DNA of 64,000 nucleotides from an uncultured beta proteobacterium. Its GTDB lineage: Bacteria; Pseudomonadota; Gammaproteobacteria; Burkholderiales; SG8-39. The translations under genes and the position numbers were made by a program. The stretch lies in NCBI GenBank assembly GCA_963811085.1, contig CAWEPV010000013.1, positions 987,304 through 1,051,303 of the forward strand. Reading direction: 5' to 3'. Shown in pieces: positions 6,009 through 34,779 of the stretch. Every line of letters begins with the position of its first letter. Position 1 is the first letter of the stretch. A model generated the notes under the pieces. The model did not search any database, was not told where the DNA came from, and was given only the letters and a program-made list of their open reading frames with translations.

Positions 6009-6085
6009 GCGCCCGTAGCTCAGCTGGATAGAGTGTCGGTCTCCGAAGCCGAAGGTCGTGGGTTCGACTCCCGCCGGGCGCGCCA
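6009..6085 (+). tRNA. tRNA-Arg (anticodon CCG)
   Basis: Manual fold: acceptor GCGCCCG/CGGGCGC, D-arm GCTC..GAGT, anticodon stem TCGGT/GCCGA with loop CTCCGAA (anticodon CCG), T-arm GTGGG-TTCGACT-CCCGC, discriminator G and an encoded CCA. Confidence 0.85.
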
Positions 6086-30176: not shown

Positions 30177-30404
30177 CTGTTTTGATGAGTGCGGACGATT
30201 ACGGGTAGAGCGATGAGATCAGTGACATACGTGACGACATGCAGTCGGGCGGCGCCGAATTTGCGCGCAGCCGTGCTCGCGATCGACCCCAGGCAGGGAG
30301 ACCGCACCGCGCCAGCAATCCGGGCTCTGGAGGAAACGTAACGCGCGCGTCTATACGCGTTTCACCAAAGCCCGGTTGCGCCGCAAGGCCACCGGGCTTT
30401 TTTG
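30177..30404 (+). ncRNA. Candidate small RNA (promoter-to-terminator unit, no convincing ORF)
   Basis: Bounded by the promoter above and the terminator at 30367-30404. It contains an internal hairpin AACGCG-cgcgtctata-CGCGTT. Only short ORFs with poor codon bias overlap it. Confidence 0.3.
30367..30404 (+). terminator. Rho-independent terminator
   Basis: AAAGCCCGGT-tgcgccgcaaggcc-ACCGGGCTTT followed by TTTTG: a 10-bp G+C-rich stem and a U-tract. Confidence 0.6.
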
Positions 30405-30600
30405 TTGCCCGTGCGCCGGAATCGGATTTGCAGCAATGCATTGATGGAACTTGGATGCGGCAAGTGCTTCGTGTTGCCGCATCCGATAAGGAGTTCGTCG
30501 CGGAAACGACCGCAGCGGGCGAGGCTCGCGAGTCCTCCCTGGCGCGCTCGGCCTGAAACATCGGCCTTGCGTGTACCGCGGGCGCGGAAGCGGCTGACAC

Positions 30601-30675
30601 ACGTGGATAGCTCAGACAGGTAGAGCAATCGGTTTGTGACCGAAAAGTCGCGGGTTCAAATCCCGCTCTCACGAA
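30601..30675 (+). tRNA. Degenerate tRNA-like element (His-GUG/Thr-UGU-like), probable tRNA pseudogene or remnant
   Basis: Intact D-arm TAGCTCAG-ACAGGTA-GAGC and T-arm GCGGG-TTCAAAT-CCCGC, and anticodon loop TTTGTGA flanked by ATCGG/CCGAA. The acceptor stem pairs at only 4-5 positions and there is no CCA. The overall layout resembles betaproteobacterial tRNA-His. Confidence 0.45.
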
Positions 30676-30951
30676 AGGCATTGGGAGCCTTGAGGCAGCA
30701 CCAAGCAGCACAAACGCAGTACGGGGCCGGTTTCGGCCGGCGCGGCAGACGACCGCCGCGCCGGCACCGGGCGCCAGGCCGAGCGCGCCGTGCGGCGCGC
30801 GCGGGCGAAGCGGCAACAGCCGAGCGCGGAATGACGCGCAAGGCGCGGCCGACTTCCCTCACGCGCGCGGCGGTGCCCGCAAGGCGGCCGGGAAGCCGGA
30901 ATCCCGATTGGCACGAGGTGATGGATAAAGACAGGACGAAGGAGGGCGACG

Positions 30952-31185
30952 ATGTTGAAGCAGACGACGATGGAGGAGGCGGTGCGGCTCACCGTACGCG
31001 AAGCCGAGGTGCTGCGCCTGATCGCGGGCGGCCGTACCTACGGGCAGATCGCCGAACAACTCGGCATGTCGGCGCACACGGTGACCTCGCACGTCAAGAA
31101 CGCGTACCGCAAGCTCGATGTGCACTCCGGGCCGGCGGCGGTGATGCGCGCCATCGAGCTGCGGCTGCTCGAGGTGACGATCTGA
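30952..31185 (+). CDS. LuxR/GerE-type HTH-only transcriptional regulator (77 aa)
   Basis: REAEVLRLIAGGRTYGQIAEQLGMSAHTVTSHVKNAYRKLDV is a canonical LuxR-C HTH. No receiver or ligand domain is present. Confidence 0.75.
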   Translation: MLKQTTMEEAVRLTVREAEVLRLIAGGRTYGQIAEQLGMSAHTVTSHVKNAYRKLDVHSGPAAVMRAIELRLLEVTI

Positions 31186-31213
31186 CGAAGGGACCGAGAA
31201 AAGGAAAGGAACG

Positions 31214-32785
31214 GTGATGTTTGTACGCAAGTTGCGCCTGAAGAAGGACGAGCGCGCGCTCCTGCTCAAGGATGGTGATTTTGTCGAGATCCTCGGTCCG
31301 GGCGAGCACGCTCGCTTCGACCCGCTGTTTCGTCTCGAGCTGGAGAAGTTCTCGATGGAAAAGACCCGTTTCGCCCACAGGCTGGAGAACTATCTGGTCA
31401 GGGTCGAGCCGGAGATCGTGGAGCGCGAATTCCACCTCGTCGATCTGGGCCCCACCGAGATCGGACTCCGCTACGAAGACGGCGTGCTCGTCGAGGCACT
31501 GGCGCCCAGTACGCACCGGCTTTACTGGAAGGGTTACGTCGACCAGCGGTTCGAGCGCTACGACATTTCGACCCAAGCGGCCATTGCCCCGGAGCTGCTT
31601 GCGCAGCTCGATGCATTGACGGATGAGAAGAGGAAGACGATGATGATTATTCGCAAATTCTGCGTGAACAAGGACGAACGTGCGCTGCTGTTCGACCGGG
31701 GCGATTTCGTCGCGATCCTGGGCCCGGGGGAGCACATTCGCTTCGATCCGTTCCGTCGGCTGGAGCTGCAGAAATTCGCACTTGCTGAGACGCGTTTCGA
31801 TCATCGGCTGGACGACTGGCTGCTGAAGGTCGAGCCGGAGCTGGTGGCGCGCGAGTTCCATTTTGTGGAGCTTGGTGCGACCGAGGTCGGGCTTGTCTAC
31901 GAGGACGGCGTGCTGGTCGCCGTACTGGCGCCGAATACCCGCCAGCTGTACTGGAAGGGTTACATCGACCTGCGCTTCGAGCGCATCGACATCTCGACCG
32001 ATTTCGCGATCGACGCAAAGCTCGTGCCGCAGCTCATCGCATGCACCGGCCCGGGCTTCAAGTCGCTGGTGACCGGCGGTGATGGCGTATTCGGCGTGCA
32101 GGTGCCGGCGTTCCACGTAGTGGCGCTGTACGTGAACGGCAAGCTGCACGACGTGCTCGAAGCGGGCGCATACGCTTTCTGGGCCTTCGGTCGCGACCTG
32201 CGCGTGGACTTCGTGGACCTGCGTTTGCAGGTGATCGAGGTGACGGGGCAGGAGATCCTGACCAAGGACAAGGTGCCGCTGCGGGTGAACCTGAACGCCG
32301 GCTACCGCGTGACCGACGTCGCGACCGCGTTCGCCAAGCAGGCCAAGCCGGCGGACTTCCTGTACCGCGAGCTGCAGTTCGGCCTGCGCGCGGCGGTGGG
32401 AACCCGAACCCTGGACGAACTGCTCGAGAACAAGGGCGTGATCGACCAGGTGGTAGCGGACCATATCTCGCGCCGCGTGCAAGGCTTCGGCATCGAGGTC
32501 GACTCGGTCGGCGTCAAGGACATCATCCTGCCGGGTGATATGAAGATGATACTGGCGAGGGTGGTGGAAGCAGACAAGATCGCGCTGGCCAACGTGATCC
32601 GCCGCCGTGAGGAGACCGCGGCGACTCGTTCACTGCTGAACACCGCCCGGGTGATGGAGGACAACCCGACCGCGCTGCGGCTGAAGGAGCTGGAGACGCT
32701 GGAGAAGGTGACCGAGAAGATCGACAGGATCTCGGTGTTCGGCGGGCTCGATGCGGTGCTCAAGGATCTGGTGAAGCTTCGCTGA
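31214..32785 (+). CDS. SPFH/band-7 (stomatin/prohibitin-like) domain protein with tandemly repeated N-terminal modules and no TM segment
   Basis: 523 aa. Residues ~1-150 and ~151-300 are clear paralogous repeats (KDERALL..GDFV.ILGPGEH.RFDP..RLEL.KF...TRF.HRL). A third repeat leads into a canonical SPFH domain (ILTKDKVPLRVNLNAGYRVTDV...GIEVDSVGVKDIILPGDMKMILARVVEADKIA). Confidence 0.7.
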   Translation: MMFVRKLRLKKDERALLLKDGDFVEILGPGEHARFDPLFRLELEKFSMEKTRFAHRLENYLVRVEPEIVEREFHLVDLGPTEIGLRYEDGVLVEALAPSTHRLYWKGYVDQRFERYDISTQAAIAPELLAQLDALTDEKRKTMMIIRKFCVNKDERALLFDRGDFVAILGPGEHIRFDPFRRLELQKFALAETRFDHRLDDWLLKVEPELVAREFHFVELGATEVGLVYEDGVLVAVLAPNTRQLYWKGYIDLRFERIDISTDFAIDAKLVPQLIACTGPGFKSLVTGGDGVFGVQVPAFHVVALYVNGKLHDVLEAGAYAFWAFGRDLRVDFVDLRLQVIEVTGQEILTKDKVPLRVNLNAGYRVTDVATAFAKQAKPADFLYRELQFGLRAAVGTRTLDELLENKGVIDQVVADHISRRVQGFGIEVDSVGVKDIILPGDMKMILARVVEADKIALANVIRRREETAATRSLLNTARVMEDNPTALRLKELETLEKVTEKIDRISVFGGLDAVLKDLVKLR

Positions 32786-32803: not shown

Positions 32804-33223
32804 TCAGGAAAGTTGAGCGACAAGCAGGTAGCGCGCCAGACGCCCGGTGGCCATGAACGCCAGCGCGGCGAGCCAGTTCACCCGCAGCCAGCCGGCGGCG
32901 AGGCACAGCGCGTCGCCTACCAGCGGCAGGAAGGCGAAGAAGGTCGCCAGGCTGCCGTAGCGCTCGATCCGGCGCAGCGCGCGCTTATTGAGCTTGTGGC
33001 GTGTGTGCTCGGGCACCAGCCGCCCCAGCGCGTAGGTGGTCATGCCGCCCGCGGTGTTGCCCAGCGTCGCCAGCGCGATCGCGAGCGCGGCGTGCCCGGG
33101 ATAGAGGCTGAGGTAGCCGAACAGCACCGCTTCGGACGGCAGCGGGACCAGCGTCGCGGCGACGAAGCTGGCGACGAACAGGCCGGCGAGGCCGCCTTCT
33201 GGCGAGAGGAGCGCGTGCAGGGT
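32804..33223 (-). CDS. YqaA (DedA-related) family inner-membrane protein
   Basis: Aligns to E. coli YqaA in the stretches LAGLFVASFVAATLVPLPSEAV and GNTAGGMTTYALGR...LPLVGDALCLAAGWLR. The YqaA-like N-terminal ~35 aa lie upstream of the first ATG/GTG. The only upstream in-frame start-like codon after the TAG stop is CTG at 33223. Confidence 0.65.
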   Translation of the reverse strand, partial: TLHALLSPEGGLAGLFVASFVAATLVPLPSEAVLFGYLSLYPGHAALAIALATLGNTAGGMTTYALGRLVPEHTRHKLNKRALRRIERYGSLATFFAFLPLVGDALCLAAGWLRVNWLAALAFMATGRLARYLLVAQLS

Positions 33224-33240: not shown

Positions 33241-34779
33241 GTGAAACGGAACGATTATCTGGAACGCATTCTCAAGGCGCGAGTCTACGACGTGGCGATC
33301 GAATCGCCGCTCGAGCGCGCGCCCGGGCTGTCCAAGCGGCTGCGAAATACGCTCCTGCTCAAGCGCGAGGACCTGCAGCCGGTATTCTCGTTCAAGCTGC
33401 GCGGCGCCTACAACAAGATGGCGAACCTGCCGCCGGCGAAGCTGAGCAAAGGCGTCATCGCCGCCAGCGCGGGCAACCACGCGCAGGGCGTGGCGCTCGC
33501 CGCGCAGCGGCTGGGCTGCCGCGCGGTCATCGTGATGCCGGTAACCACGCCGAAGATCAAGGTCGACGCGGTGGCGGCGCGCGGGGCGGAGGTCGTGCTG
33601 CGCGGCGATTCGTATTCGGACGCGTACGCGCACGCAATGCAGATCAAGCGCCGGCGCGGCCTCACCTTCGTCCACCCCTACGACGACCCCGACGTCATCG
33701 CCGGGCAGGGAACGATCGGGATGGAGATTGCGCGCCAGCACGCCGGGCCGATCGACGCCGTGTTCGTCGCAGTCGGGGGCGGCGGGCTGATCTCGGGCAT
33801 CGCGAGCTACCTCAAGCGGCTGCGCCCGGAAATCAGGATCATCGGCGTCGAGCCGGTCGACGCCGACGCCATGGCGCGCTCGCTCAAGGCCGGCCGGCGG
33901 GTGGTGCTCGATCAGGTCGGACTGTTCGCCGACGGCGTCGCGGTCAAGCAGGTCGGCAAGGAGACTTTCCGCCTGGCGCGCAAGCTGGTCGATGAGATGG
34001 TGCTGGTCGACACCGACGAGATGTGCGCCGCGATCAAGGACGTGTTCGAGGACACGCGCGTGGTCCTCGAGCCGGCGGGCGCGCTCGCGATCGCCGGCGC
34101 AAAGGCATGGGTCGCGAAGCGCGGGGCGCGCGGCAAGACGCTGGTCGCGGTGGCCTGCGGCGCGAACACCAACTTCGACCGCCTGCGCTTCATCGCCGAG
34201 CAGGCCGAGCTGGGCGAGCACCGCGAGGCGATTCTCGCGGTCACCATCCCGGAGCGCCCGGGGAGCTTCAAGAAGTTCTGCGCCACCCTCGGCGCGAAGA
34301 ACATCACCGAGTTCAACTACCGCATCGCCGAATCGCGCGAGGCGCACATTTTCGTCGGCATCGAGACCGCCAACCAGGCGGAAACCGGGAAGATCGTGCG
34401 CAACCTCGAGCGCCACAGCCTGCGCACGCTCGACCTGTCGGACAACGAGATGGCGAAGACTCACCTGCGCCACATGGTCGGCGGGCGCGCGCCATGGTCG
34501 GGCGACCGGCGCGCGGCGCGCGCGGCGAACGAGCTGCTGTACCGCTTCGAGTTCCCCGAGCGGCCCGGCGCGCTGATGCGCTTTCTGAACAACATGCGCG
34601 GCGACTGGAACATCAGCCTGTTCCACTATCGCAACCAGGGCGCCGACTACGGCCGCGTGCTGGTCGGCATCCAGGTACCGCCGCACGAGATGCGCGAGTT
34701 CGGCCAGTTTCTCGCCAAGCTCGGCTATCCCTTCGTCGAAGAAACCCGCAATCCGGCCTACCGGCTGTTCCTCAGCTAG
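33241..34779 (+). CDS. ilvA: Threonine ammonia-lyase, biosynthetic
   Basis: 512 aa; PLP motif FSFKLRGAYNKM and two C-terminal ACT-like regulatory domains. GTG start. Confidence 0.9.
   Translation: MKRNDYLERILKARVYDVAIESPLERAPGLSKRLRNTLLLKREDLQPVFSFKLRGAYNKMANLPPAKLSKGVIAASAGNHAQGVALAAQRLGCRAVIVMPVTTPKIKVDAVAARGAEVVLRGDSYSDAYAHAMQIKRRRGLTFVHPYDDPDVIAGQGTIGMEIARQHAGPIDAVFVAVGGGGLISGIASYLKRLRPEIRIIGVEPVDADAMARSLKAGRRVVLDQVGLFADGVAVKQVGKETFRLARKLVDEMVLVDTDEMCAAIKDVFEDTRVVLEPAGALAIAGAKAWVAKRGARGKTLVAVACGANTNFDRLRFIAEQAELGEHREAILAVTIPERPGSFKKFCATLGAKNITEFNYRIAESREAHIFVGIETANQAETGKIVRNLERHSLRTLDLSDNEMAKTHLRHMVGGRAPWSGDRRAARAANELLYRFEFPERPGALMRFLNNMRGDWNISLFHYRNQGADYGRVLVGIQVPPHEMREFGQFLAKLGYPFVEETRNPAYRLFLS

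Follow-up and report, generated by a model that had tools for sequence, protein, structure and literature searches.

To our knowledge, every bacterial SPFH protein characterised so far has a role in organising membrane proteases or microdomains (HflK/C, QmcA), and we know of no solved SPFH protein whose C-terminal helices do not assemble a large ring or cage. A Band-7 module linked to RNA repair was predicted in 2016: according to a later preprint, the RNA ligase gene rtcB is found beside genes for a Band-7 protein and a predicted band-7-associated tRNA, the b7a-tRNA (Burroughs & Aravind 2016, cited in bioRxiv 10.1101/312249). The cassette is widespread in bacteria and is usually associated with RtcB RNA repair and with the translational stress response. 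The same preprint states that expression of a b7a-tRNA had not been demonstrated as of 2018, and that Ro60/Y RNA and Band-7/b7a-tRNA modules reportedly replace each other in some genomes (bioRxiv 10.1101/312249). A trcR mutant of Anabaena PCC 7120 shows 71- and 42-fold derepression of the alr0739-alr0740 (slipin) operon, and rtcB and a tRNA array are derepressed along with it (PMC10272220). By position, strand, size and product name, alr0740 is our P0466, a family member of 508 aa with two N-terminal modules (described below), which is encoded at 861842-863368 of the PCC 7120 chromosome downstream of a 193-aa DUF8412/OmdA gene and a tRNA gene. No experimental study of a Band-7/b7a-tRNA protein or RNA was found in the literature, and the derepression in the trcR mutant, along with rtcB and the tRNA array, constitutes the only functional data on the family.

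The locus described here lies in the window, by which we mean the whole stretch of 64,000 nucleotides that was analysed, and is well supported as a stand-alone, lineage-specific variant of the module of Band-7/SPFH protein and band-7-associated tRNA that is tied to RtcB RNA repair. Its features are as follows.

30487..30600, + strand: conserved leader, non-coding, directly 5' of the tRNA-like gene; presumed promoter or 5' leader
30602..30674, + strand: tRNA-like gene (ARAGORN, Rfam tRNA)
30727..30899, + strand: GC-rich conserved spacer, predicted to form a long hairpin that bears a side arm; candidate for a structured RNA or an element of the 5'UTR
30952..31185, + strand: gene for a GerE/LuxR-C-type HTH-only regulator, 77 aa (Pfam GerE)
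31214-32785, + strand: SPFH/Band-7 protein gene (ORF), 523 aa
31214..31639, + strand: N-terminal module 1 (aa 1-142; extra), two five-stranded beta units; missing from the canonical 381-aa homologues
31640..32065, + strand: N-terminal module 2 (aa 143-284), orthologue of the single module of the canonical 381-aa proteins
32102..32614, + strand: SPFH/Band-7 domain (aa 297-467; PF01145, E 7e-28)
32534..32785, + strand: C-terminal long helices (aa 441-523; AF2 secondary structure; basic, pI 9.2) and stop codon

At the DNA level, the whole cassette recurs with 100% identity in L085-L088, which are independent assemblies; one further contig, L089, stops within the SPFH gene. Housekeeping genes (glucokinase, 6PGDH-like, ilvA) flank the cassette, and the sole adjoining membrane-protein gene, a VTT gene at 32804-33127, is convergent to the SPFH gene and was not seen beside it at the other loci examined. 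Scanning from the leader to the SPFH stop codon for sigma-70 promoters and terminators returned nothing convincing. Upstream of the tRNA-like genes, a strict sigma-54 promoter pattern was matched at only 5 of 83 loci and gave no information; no promoter is assigned within the window. Homologues of RtcB, RtcR, RlaP and HNH proteins were absent from every frame of the whole 64 kb, so that the link to RNA ligation is here one of family association only. The features specific to the window are the extra module, a clade-restricted GerE gene inserted behind a conserved, structured spacer, and the lack of RtcB, RtcR and RlaP within 64 kb.

Pfam matches Band_7 (PF01145) to residues 297-467 only, with 98.3 bits against a cut-off of 23.6, which places the protein in the SPFH superfamily by the threshold of the curated domain model. 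As the initial annotation had stated, the 523-aa protein has no transmembrane segment: a Kyte-Doolittle scan found no hydrophobic or membrane segment, the highest 19-residue mean being 1.37. The AF2 monomer (pLDDT 83.9 at full length, 90.4 for a model of aa 1-290) resembles stomatin and HflK/C in that the SPFH domain is followed by long C-terminal helices (441-483, 485-502 and 511-522). Stomatin, HflK/C, prohibitin, erlin and QmcA are its best Foldseek matches (E 1e-14 to 1e-9), and the alignments to stomatin and HflK/C chains, over 220-256 columns, include the C-terminal helices. JGI names the product a regulator of protease activity.

The N-terminal half of the protein is an array. Self-BLAST of the whole protein gave the identity match only, and the repeats emerged when segments were compared with one another: a gapless alignment of residues 2-143 with 144-285 shows 62% identity (E 3e-62), and as DNA the two copies are 71.6% identical. 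The first 284 residues are thus an internal duplication, as had been proposed for the first ~300. Each 142-aa module consists of two five-stranded beta units of ~65 aa. In hhalign comparisons, unit A aligns with unit B at 98.2-98.6% probability, and each of them aligns with the start of the SPFH domain (~60 residues) at 96.5-97.8%, whereas reversed or column-shuffled controls reach at most 2.5%. By these profile alignments, the beta units are homologues of the beta segment with which the SPFH domain begins. Given the sub-units within each module, the array consists not of three SPFH-N-like modules, as had been proposed, but of four additional beta units and the one that belongs to the domain.

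The norm in the family is two beta units (one 142-aa module in a protein of 381 aa in total), compared with four in the 523-aa protein of the window; the best 120 homologues are nearly all 376-389 aa long and begin at window residue 143. Module 2 is 64-78% identical to the modules of L002, L001, L005 and L006. The N-module family comprises 532 representatives at E<=1e-3, with two-module proteins at 18 of the fetched loci and among distant representatives. The two-module form is standard in Nostocales, and proteins with three modules and with 7-11 units are also found. One supposed relative of 1124 aa (P0203, '9 stretches') is a plectin-repeat protein and was discarded. The lineage of the window duplicated an entire module in frame, and cyanobacteria and others expanded the array independently; in an NJ tree, module 1 of the window is sister to its own close clade. 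Contrary to the initial annotation, the architecture is not atypical, as the soluble one-module form of 381 aa is a large family in which two- and three-module forms recur.

Gene neighbourhoods tie this family to RNA repair. Among ~77 non-redundant loci, with neighbour identities checked with Pfam, RtcB is present in 37 and RtcR in 26, and RlaP and HNH are also recurrent; 39 loci resemble the window in having none of the four. Physical linkage of the SPFH gene extends, in many proteobacteria, to HNH genes and to long arrays of tRNA genes. The window SPFH protein is 58-87% identical to orthologues that adjoin RtcB, RtcR and RlaP. Identity is 47-59% to the proteins whose genes lie between those for RtcR and RtcB, as in Pseudomonas, Burkholderia and Dechloromonas among others, and these have the same N-module architecture. 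PADLOC models of known anti-phage defence systems gave no match to the SPFH protein.

The partner of the SPFH gene is the tRNA-like gene. ARAGORN calls the element at 30602-30674 a tRNA-Thr(UGU), and it scores 53 bits against the Rfam tRNA model (RF00005; gathering score 29). Its acceptor stem is bulged and has 6 bp, the 5' strand being short by one base; its anticodon stem carries an A.A mismatch; its anticodon loop, UUUGUGA, combines the 'UGU' anticodon with a G at position 37; and its 3' end (...CACGA-AAGG) has no encoded CCA. A canonical tRNA-Arg at 6009-6085 of the same window, taken for comparison, pairs perfectly over the 7 bp of its stem, and its CCA is encoded. A37 is needed in ANN-decoding tRNAs, where it carries t6A. 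Although it fits the general tRNA covariance model, the element was rejected as a functional elongator tRNA-Thr on three counts, namely the regular 7-bp stem, the encoded CCA and A37. The initial annotation had taken it as a landmark of acquired DNA. Of 85 related loci, however, 63 have a tRNA-like gene on the same strand no more than 900 nt upstream of the SPFH gene: the element is a conserved partner gene, described in earlier work as the band-7-associated tRNA, and not an integration scar. The body formed by the D-arm and T-arm is common to these upstream genes, including that of the window, and the anticodon varies freely.

Conservation extends to both sides of the tRNA-like gene. With nhmmer, the leader is detected at the same relative position in L001, L002, L005, L006, L007 and L092, and the spacer in L001, L002, L005, L006 and L092. 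RNAalifold predicts a spacer fold of 66 pairs, with 91.4% of the cells paired. Two-sided changes affect 15 pairs, compared with 6.3 in shuffles (0/500 reach 15) and 1-7 in slid controls, in a comparison of five sequences whose structure was taken from the same alignment as the test.

The small regulator gene, whose ATG is preceded at 8 nt by AGGAGG, encodes a 77-aa protein that matches GerE (PF00196) with 60.6 bits. Only GerE/HTH matches were obtained and no ligand- or autoinducer-binding domain was detected, so that the name 'LuxR solo' given to it earlier is a misnomer for a GerE-like protein, correct as its description as HTH-only was. PADLOC likewise matched only the generic HTH parts of CARF/CasR models. 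Only 345 small proteins make up the tight family to which it belongs, and their genes adjoin Band_7 and/or AAA ATPase genes. A universal partnership with the SPFH gene is nevertheless ruled out, as just 5 of 85 loci have the GerE gene directly upstream of it, and these all come from the closest clade. In other lineages, the SPFH system is regulated by RtcR (proteobacteria) or TrcR (Anabaena), not by GerE.

The likely function, as we infer it from these associations, is that of a cytosolic SPFH ring or cage working with a tRNA-like RNA during RNA damage or translational stress. The SPFH protein would probably oligomerise by means of its C-terminal helices, and the resulting large ring or cage, having no membrane anchor, would be cytosolic. 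The beta units would make its wall longer, much as the vault barrel is lengthened by the repeats of major vault protein (MVP). MVP chains are the only PDB chains that Foldseek aligns over the full-length model (~600 columns, E 2e-12). The N-modules are acidic (pI 5.4-5.6), and their bulk charge gives no support for RNA binding. The tRNA-like RNA, possibly co-transcribed with the protein genes from the same leader, may bind the particle as a scaffold, an adaptor or a decoy for broken tRNAs, and the particle may aid RNA repair or buffering under translational stress induced by RNase toxins or antibiotics. In the window clade, the GerE protein would set expression in place of RtcR or TrcR, and a ligase, if any, would be encoded elsewhere in the genome. 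Identity and mechanism taken jointly, namely a Band-7/b7a-tRNA variant that acts as a ring or cage with its tRNA-like RNA under translational stress, we consider rather probable.

A bolder proposal, which we regard as tentative and on balance unlikely, is that the family as a whole forms a membrane-free, vault-like RNP cage, the wall height of which would follow the number of beta units (2, 4, 6, ~11 at most), with a dedicated tRNA mimic whose anticodon loop is free to evolve. The mimic might then lure or sense anticodon nucleases, or hold broken tRNAs awaiting RtcB, and the module of the window would be autonomous under a GerE switch, with a taller, four-unit wall. Neither Pfam Vault nor MVP_shoulder matched the SPFH protein or 26 isolated modules at E<=1, and the module profile found no MVP among PDB sequences; homology of the N-terminal units to vault repeats is thus unsupported at the domain level, and structural equivalence of the repeats was not found.

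Less probable again is a scaffold for proteostasis, in which the partner of a soluble SPFH cage would be a classical AAA ATPase, as FtsH is for HflK/C, or the cage would attach peripherally to the membrane, the tRNA-like gene being merely co-regulated. In the closest clade (L001, L005, L007, L092), the Band_7 gene is followed by a gene for a stand-alone AAA ATPase, similar in its ATPase domain to FtsH, CDC48 and proteasomal ATPases, and GerE is paired with AAA but not Band_7 in L090/L091; service to membrane proteases or microdomains among characterised bacterial SPFH proteins and the JGI product name point the same way. In the window, however, no AAA gene adjoins the SPFH gene, the protein has no transmembrane segment, and the adjoining VTT gene is convergent and peculiar to this locus among those examined. 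Across the family, neither NfeD nor an FtsH partner was seen among the recurrent neighbours, which are RNA-repair and tRNA-like genes and not proteases.

We give similarly little credence to the possibility that the true product is a 381-aa protein starting at M143/M144, module 1 being what is left of a partial tandem duplication, slowly decaying but still in frame and kept open by nothing more than the rarity of stop codons in this GC-rich DNA. The start codon of the canonical homologues does align exactly with M143/M144, and spurious long ORFs exist here, such as a 462-aa antisense ORF at 31094-32482. Module 1 is also on a longer branch, with 61% identity to orthologous modules compared with 71-78% for module 2, and its branch dN/dS is somewhat higher (~0.42 vs 0.26; three-point estimates with L001, leaving out L002 and L005 with their N-terminal indels). 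Yet the 142 codons of module 1 contain no frameshift or stop at a dS of ~0.75 from module 2, with a dN/dS of 0.35 between the two, well below 1; family-conserved residues are retained, and the AF2 pLDDT is ~90. It is preceded by a purine-rich Shine-Dalgarno-like stretch of its own, AAGGAAAGGAA, and a GTG/ATG start, whereas only a weak motif of this kind lies before M143. Gene callers on independent assemblies report a product of 522 aa, which makes the ATG at 31217 the likely start, and the multi-module relatives indicate that extra modules are tolerated and retained.

The flanks of the cassette vary between relatives, and the cassette therefore does move. A novel, horizontally acquired stress/defence pair at a degenerate tRNA that marks an integration site, as the initial annotation had it, is nonetheless highly improbable, for although these differing flanks, the position between housekeeping genes and the view reportedly held by Burroughs and Aravind that RNA-repair systems are counter-measures to RNase toxins would suit it, the tRNA-like gene accompanies the SPFH gene at a fixed distance and on the same strand in 63 of 85 loci, keeps its family-specific body and is flanked by a conserved leader and spacer, neither an integrase nor a direct repeat of the tRNA 3' end was seen, and the SPFH protein is without a PADLOC match.

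For the most part, the finding is thus a known family recognised late, not a new kind of system. What is new is that the N-terminus is an expandable array copied from the SPFH domain, which has grown independently several times; that many proteobacteria have the SPFH gene in physical linkage with HNH genes and long tRNA arrays; and that GerE has replaced the usual regulator in a clade of betaproteobacteria, which also has a further conserved RNA element, a predicted hairpin. If the proposed function is right, a soluble assembly of SPFH proteins that works with an RNA would represent a type of SPFH complex not seen before and a tractable entry point to the bacterial handling of tRNA damage, and the vault-like reading, if true, could bear on the origin of eukaryotic vaults.

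Compared with known systems, the membrane SPFH assemblies (HflK/C, QmcA, stomatin, prohibitin, erlin, flotillin) share the SPFH domain and C-terminal helices with the window protein, which differs from them in having neither a transmembrane or hairpin anchor nor an NfeD or FtsH partner, the array of beta units taking the place of the anchor. The 77-aa regulator is like other GerE/LuxR C-terminal HTH-only regulators in being the LuxR-C HTH alone; in contrast to a quorum-sensing LuxR solo, it lacks an autoinducer-binding domain and belongs to a small, dedicated family linked to Band_7 and AAA genes. Ro60 (Rsr) with Y RNA/YrlA, encoded in rsr-yrlBA-rtcBA operons, is analogous as a ring-forming protein with a tRNA-mimicking RNA beside RtcB, but its TROVE/HEAT ring fold is unrelated to SPFH. 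The vault RNP is cytosolic and associated with a small non-coding RNA, and MVP has the same order of parts, with small N-terminal beta domains, an SPFH-like 'shoulder' and a long helix. With Anabaena alr0739-alr0740, the locus shares the protein family, the two-module architecture and the upstream tRNA gene, whereas the cyanobacterial module duplication is independent and older, the regulator is the RHH protein TrcR encoded elsewhere, and the 193-aa DUF8412/OmdA gene replaces GerE. The Band-7/b7a-tRNA module of RtcB systems has an orthologous soluble SPFH protein and a same-strand tRNA-like gene directly upstream; the window differs in having no RtcB, RtcR or RlaP within 64 kb, and adds a GerE gene and a hairpin spacer between the RNA and protein genes, as well as one more 142-aa module in the protein.

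The genes of the cassette are arranged in the window as follows.

30602-30674, plus strand: tRNA-like gene, found by ARAGORN and Rfam, 278 nt 5' of the GerE start
30952-31185, plus strand: gene for a 77-aa protein that is a GerE/LuxR-C helix-turn-helix alone (PF00196, 60.6 bits)
31214-32785, plus strand: gene for a 523-aa SPFH protein, whose match to the SPFH/Band_7 model is confined to residues 297-467 (98 bits)

The cassette DNA is 100% identical over 2245 nt in four further independent assemblies, with a fifth contig stopping within the SPFH gene; given this identity, an assembly artefact is ruled out as the source of the gene. In complete copies from other assemblies, the product of the gene callers is 522 aa long, starting from the ATG at 31217. 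As GC-rich DNA yields long spurious ORFs, such as a 462-aa ORF antisense to the SPFH gene (31094-32482, minus strand), an open frame by itself counts for little in the window. A terminator-like hairpin with a T-run (30385-30400, plus strand) separates the glucokinase gene from the conserved leader, and probably just shields the cassette from upstream transcription; it is overlapped by a weak Rfam STnc390 match (30347-30407, plus strand; 22 bits versus a gathering score of 50). On the other side, a small VTT/DedA-like membrane-protein gene (32804-33127, minus strand), convergent with the SPFH gene, is kept in every assembly of the organism that reaches beyond the latter, and was not seen adjoining the SPFH gene in the other lineages examined. 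Just past the cassette is a gene for a threonine dehydratase of the biosynthetic type (33241-34779, plus strand).

The SPFH protein begins with two 142-aa modules, residues 2-143 and 144-285, which are 62% identical in a gapless alignment (E 3e-62) and 71.6% identical in DNA. Each module comprises two five-stranded beta halves of ~65 aa, units A and B. In profile-profile comparisons with unit profiles built from 20 family members, A matches B with 98.2-98.6% probability and both match the SPFH domain over its first ~60 residues with 96.5-97.8%, against at most 2.5% for the controls (profiles in reverse, and unit B versus twenty SPFH profiles with shuffled columns). Isolated modules match Pfam Band_7 unaided in 15 of 26 cases (best E 6e-6), and in all relatives tested the beginning of the SPFH domain is hit by the module HMM. 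AlphaFold2 models (pLDDT 83.9 for the full length, 90.4 for residues 1-290) present four five-stranded beta units spaced by short helices, then the SPFH domain, with long helices at the C-terminus. Because these lines agree, the initial annotation was right to see the start of the protein as repeats of an SPFH N-terminal portion. The duplication it described stands, but its count of three such modules does not: four units are added to the one that the domain itself has. It was equally right that the protein has no TM segment, as no hydrophobic segment is present and the top Kyte-Doolittle mean over 19 residues is 1.37.

Nearly all of the top 120 homologues in a collection of 5.8 billion proteins are 376-389 aa long, and their N-terminus, MMxFRKF, falls exactly on window residues 143-144; the window protein is therefore the canonical 381-aa, one-module soluble protein with one extra N-terminal module. 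The module family has 532 representatives (50% clustering, E<=1e-3), the distant ones including two-module proteins of 505-560 aa. The two-module form, found in 18 of the fetched loci, is the norm in Nostocales and also occurs in Gilliamella. Given that three-module relatives (P0390, P0400 and P0406, 643-675 aa) and relatives with 7-11 single ~65-aa units in succession before the SPFH domain (P0229, 894 aa; P0168, 787 aa) exist, the unit number is evolutionarily plastic. A multi-repeat cytosolic SPFH protein had been considered atypical, a view that does not survive the commonness of the canonical soluble form and the existence of these longer ones. In a neighbor-joining tree, window module 1 groups as the sister of the clade formed by window module 2 and the close relatives at loci L001, L002, L005 and L006, and is unrelated to cyanobacterial modules, so the duplication is local and independent. 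Between the two modules, dS is ~0.75 and dN/dS 0.35 (by a three-point estimate, ~0.42 on the branch of module 1 and 0.26 on that of module 2); the duplication is not recent.

Linkage to a tRNA-like gene is a conserved property of the family: in 63 of 85 loci, the 900 nt 5' of the SPFH start contain a tRNA or tRNA-like gene on the same strand, usually at a distance of 235-330 nt, or 535-586 nt with a GerE gene between. When aligned, these RNAs have an invariant D-arm (TAGCTCA...TAGAGCA) and T-arm (CGCGGGTTCGAnTCCCGC), with an 'anticodon' free to vary even among close relatives (UGU in the window, UAG in L002, GAU in L005 and L092, GAC in L006); several carry A34, or an anticodon of 2 or 4 nt in the loop. 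The same constant body with a variable anticodon is seen at 30602-30674 and in L002, L005, L006, L009, L010, L030, L034, L038, L054 and others, suggesting that the anticodon loop of these band-7-associated (b7a) tRNA-like genes is under relaxed or diversifying selection. The window element conforms to this family in the alignment. Its acceptor stem is one base short on the 5' strand, the first pair of its anticodon stem is A.A, its loop UUUGUGA places G at position 37, and it has no encoded CCA; elsewhere in the window, the tRNA-Arg at 6009-6085 encodes CCA and its stem is perfect. A37 is required for t6A in ANN-decoding tRNAs. With these four features, the element does not look like a working tRNA-Thr. 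Since it also fits a family found upstream of SPFH genes, its earlier reading as a degenerate tRNA marking acquired DNA, an integration scar, is unsupported.

A GerE gene directly 5' of the SPFH gene is confined to the window, L001, L002/L003, L005 and L092/L093, and its protein family is compact (345 small proteins). In this clade, a leader of ~110 nt before the tRNA-like gene and a GC-rich spacer of ~215 nt after it are kept. Both are also kept in L006, where GerE is absent and the spacer adjoins the SPFH gene; thus, GerE is an insertion into an older layout. About 170 nt of the spacer (30727-30899, plus strand) are predicted to form a long hairpin with 91% of cells paired, in which 15 pairs have changed on both sides, where shuffles give 6.3 and slid controls 1-7, for five sequences and a structure derived from the same alignment. 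The hairpin could serve either as a second RNA component or in regulation, as a 5'UTR. In the GerE clade, a classical AAA ATPase that stands alone, with an FtsH/CDC48-like ATPase domain and without a protease domain, is often encoded just after the SPFH protein (L001, L005, L007, L092), a pairing that recalls HflK/C-FtsH; GerE and AAA genes without an SPFH or tRNA-like gene occur in L090/L091.

AAA ATPase gene positions
L001: 7158-8258
L092: 6452-7483
L005: 7171-8268
L007: 7153-8328
L090: 5232-6320

Across the family, neighborhoods were sampled at 80 loci, one genome per species, by clustering ORFs and naming recurrent ones with Pfam.

Recurrent neighbours of the SPFH gene
Directly downstream: RtcB RNA ligase
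Upstream, divergent: RtcR, a sigma-54 activator
Downstream: RlaP nucleotidyltransferase
Upstream: HNH endonuclease

Linkage to RtcB-type repair genes holds in about half of the loci: of ~77 non-redundant ones, 37 have RtcB and 26 RtcR, and 39 have no RtcB, RtcR, RlaP, GerE or AAA ATPase. Comparative genomics had predicted a b7a-tRNA and a Band-7 protein encoded beside RtcB (Burroughs & Aravind 2016, as cited in bioRxiv 10.1101/312249). No RtcB, RtcR, RlaP, HNH or AAA gene is present across the 64 kb of the window. The Band-7 gene of many proteobacterial genomes is directly preceded by an array of 9-25 tRNA genes, in many cases accompanied by an HNH gene.

tRNA-array positions
L002: 3872-5466
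L005: 4453-5439
L013: 1332-3294
L092: 3718-4757
L035: 1687-5740
L055: 1542-5679 (25 genes)
Also in L057 and L079

These arrays resemble the cyanobacterial 'L-arrays', which have HNH and rtcB neighbors; the Band-7 gene is unmentioned there (PMC8421152). In an Anabaena sp. PCC 7120 mutant of the repressor TrcR, the alr0739-alr0740 ('slipin family protein') operon is derepressed 71- and 42-fold and rtcB 77-fold; a 26-gene tRNA array is likewise repressed by TrcR, which binds the alr0739 promoter (PMC10272220). Under translational stress, this array and rtcB are induced together (PMC8421152). The PCC 7120 chromosome (BA000019.2) encodes a 508-aa two-module family member at 861842-863368 (plus strand), whose position, strand, size and product name make it very probably alr0740. 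Ahead of it come a tRNA gene and, nearer to it, a 193-aa gene, presumably alr0739. In Nostocales (L095, 3376-3957, which is PCC 7120, and L094), this DUF8412/OmdA-like gene has the tRNA gene on one side and the two-module Band-7 gene on the other, in the slot that GerE occupies in the window clade. The TrcR regulon also contains a threonine dehydratase, all0262, beside the AAA ATPase all0263; that one adjoins the window cassette too is possibly a coincidence.

To our knowledge, all solved SPFH proteins (stomatin, HflK/C, QmcA, prohibitin, erlin, flotillin, MVP) form rings or cages through their C-terminal helices. Given that the AlphaFold2 model retains these helices and places the beta units where a membrane anchor would be, the most economical model is a cytosolic ring or cage, whose wall would be extended by the beta units. 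By analogy with Ro-Y RNA and vault-vault RNA, we propose that the tRNA-like RNA may bind this particle and help handle damaged tRNAs; the acidic beta modules and the absence of a ligase from the window count against such RNA handling. The observation of the initial annotation is confirmed and its interpretation partly supported. The locus is a fresh variant of a gene module known from computation, marked by the extra protein module, the GerE regulator, the conserved hairpin spacer and no adjoining ligase. It contributes variation rather than a new principle, and the family deserves experiments.

A further comparison is with the vault. Chains of major vault protein (MVP), which has nine repeats, a range to which the unit number of SPFH relatives extends, are the sole ones aligning along the whole model (~600 columns, E 2e-12, TM ~0.32). 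MVP was not retrieved by the beta units alone and no Vault sequence family matches the window protein or the isolated modules, so the protein is not treated as a member of the vault family. The likeness lies in the order of parts, the cytosolic location inferred here and the RNA partner proposed here, and the window system perhaps works like a vault.
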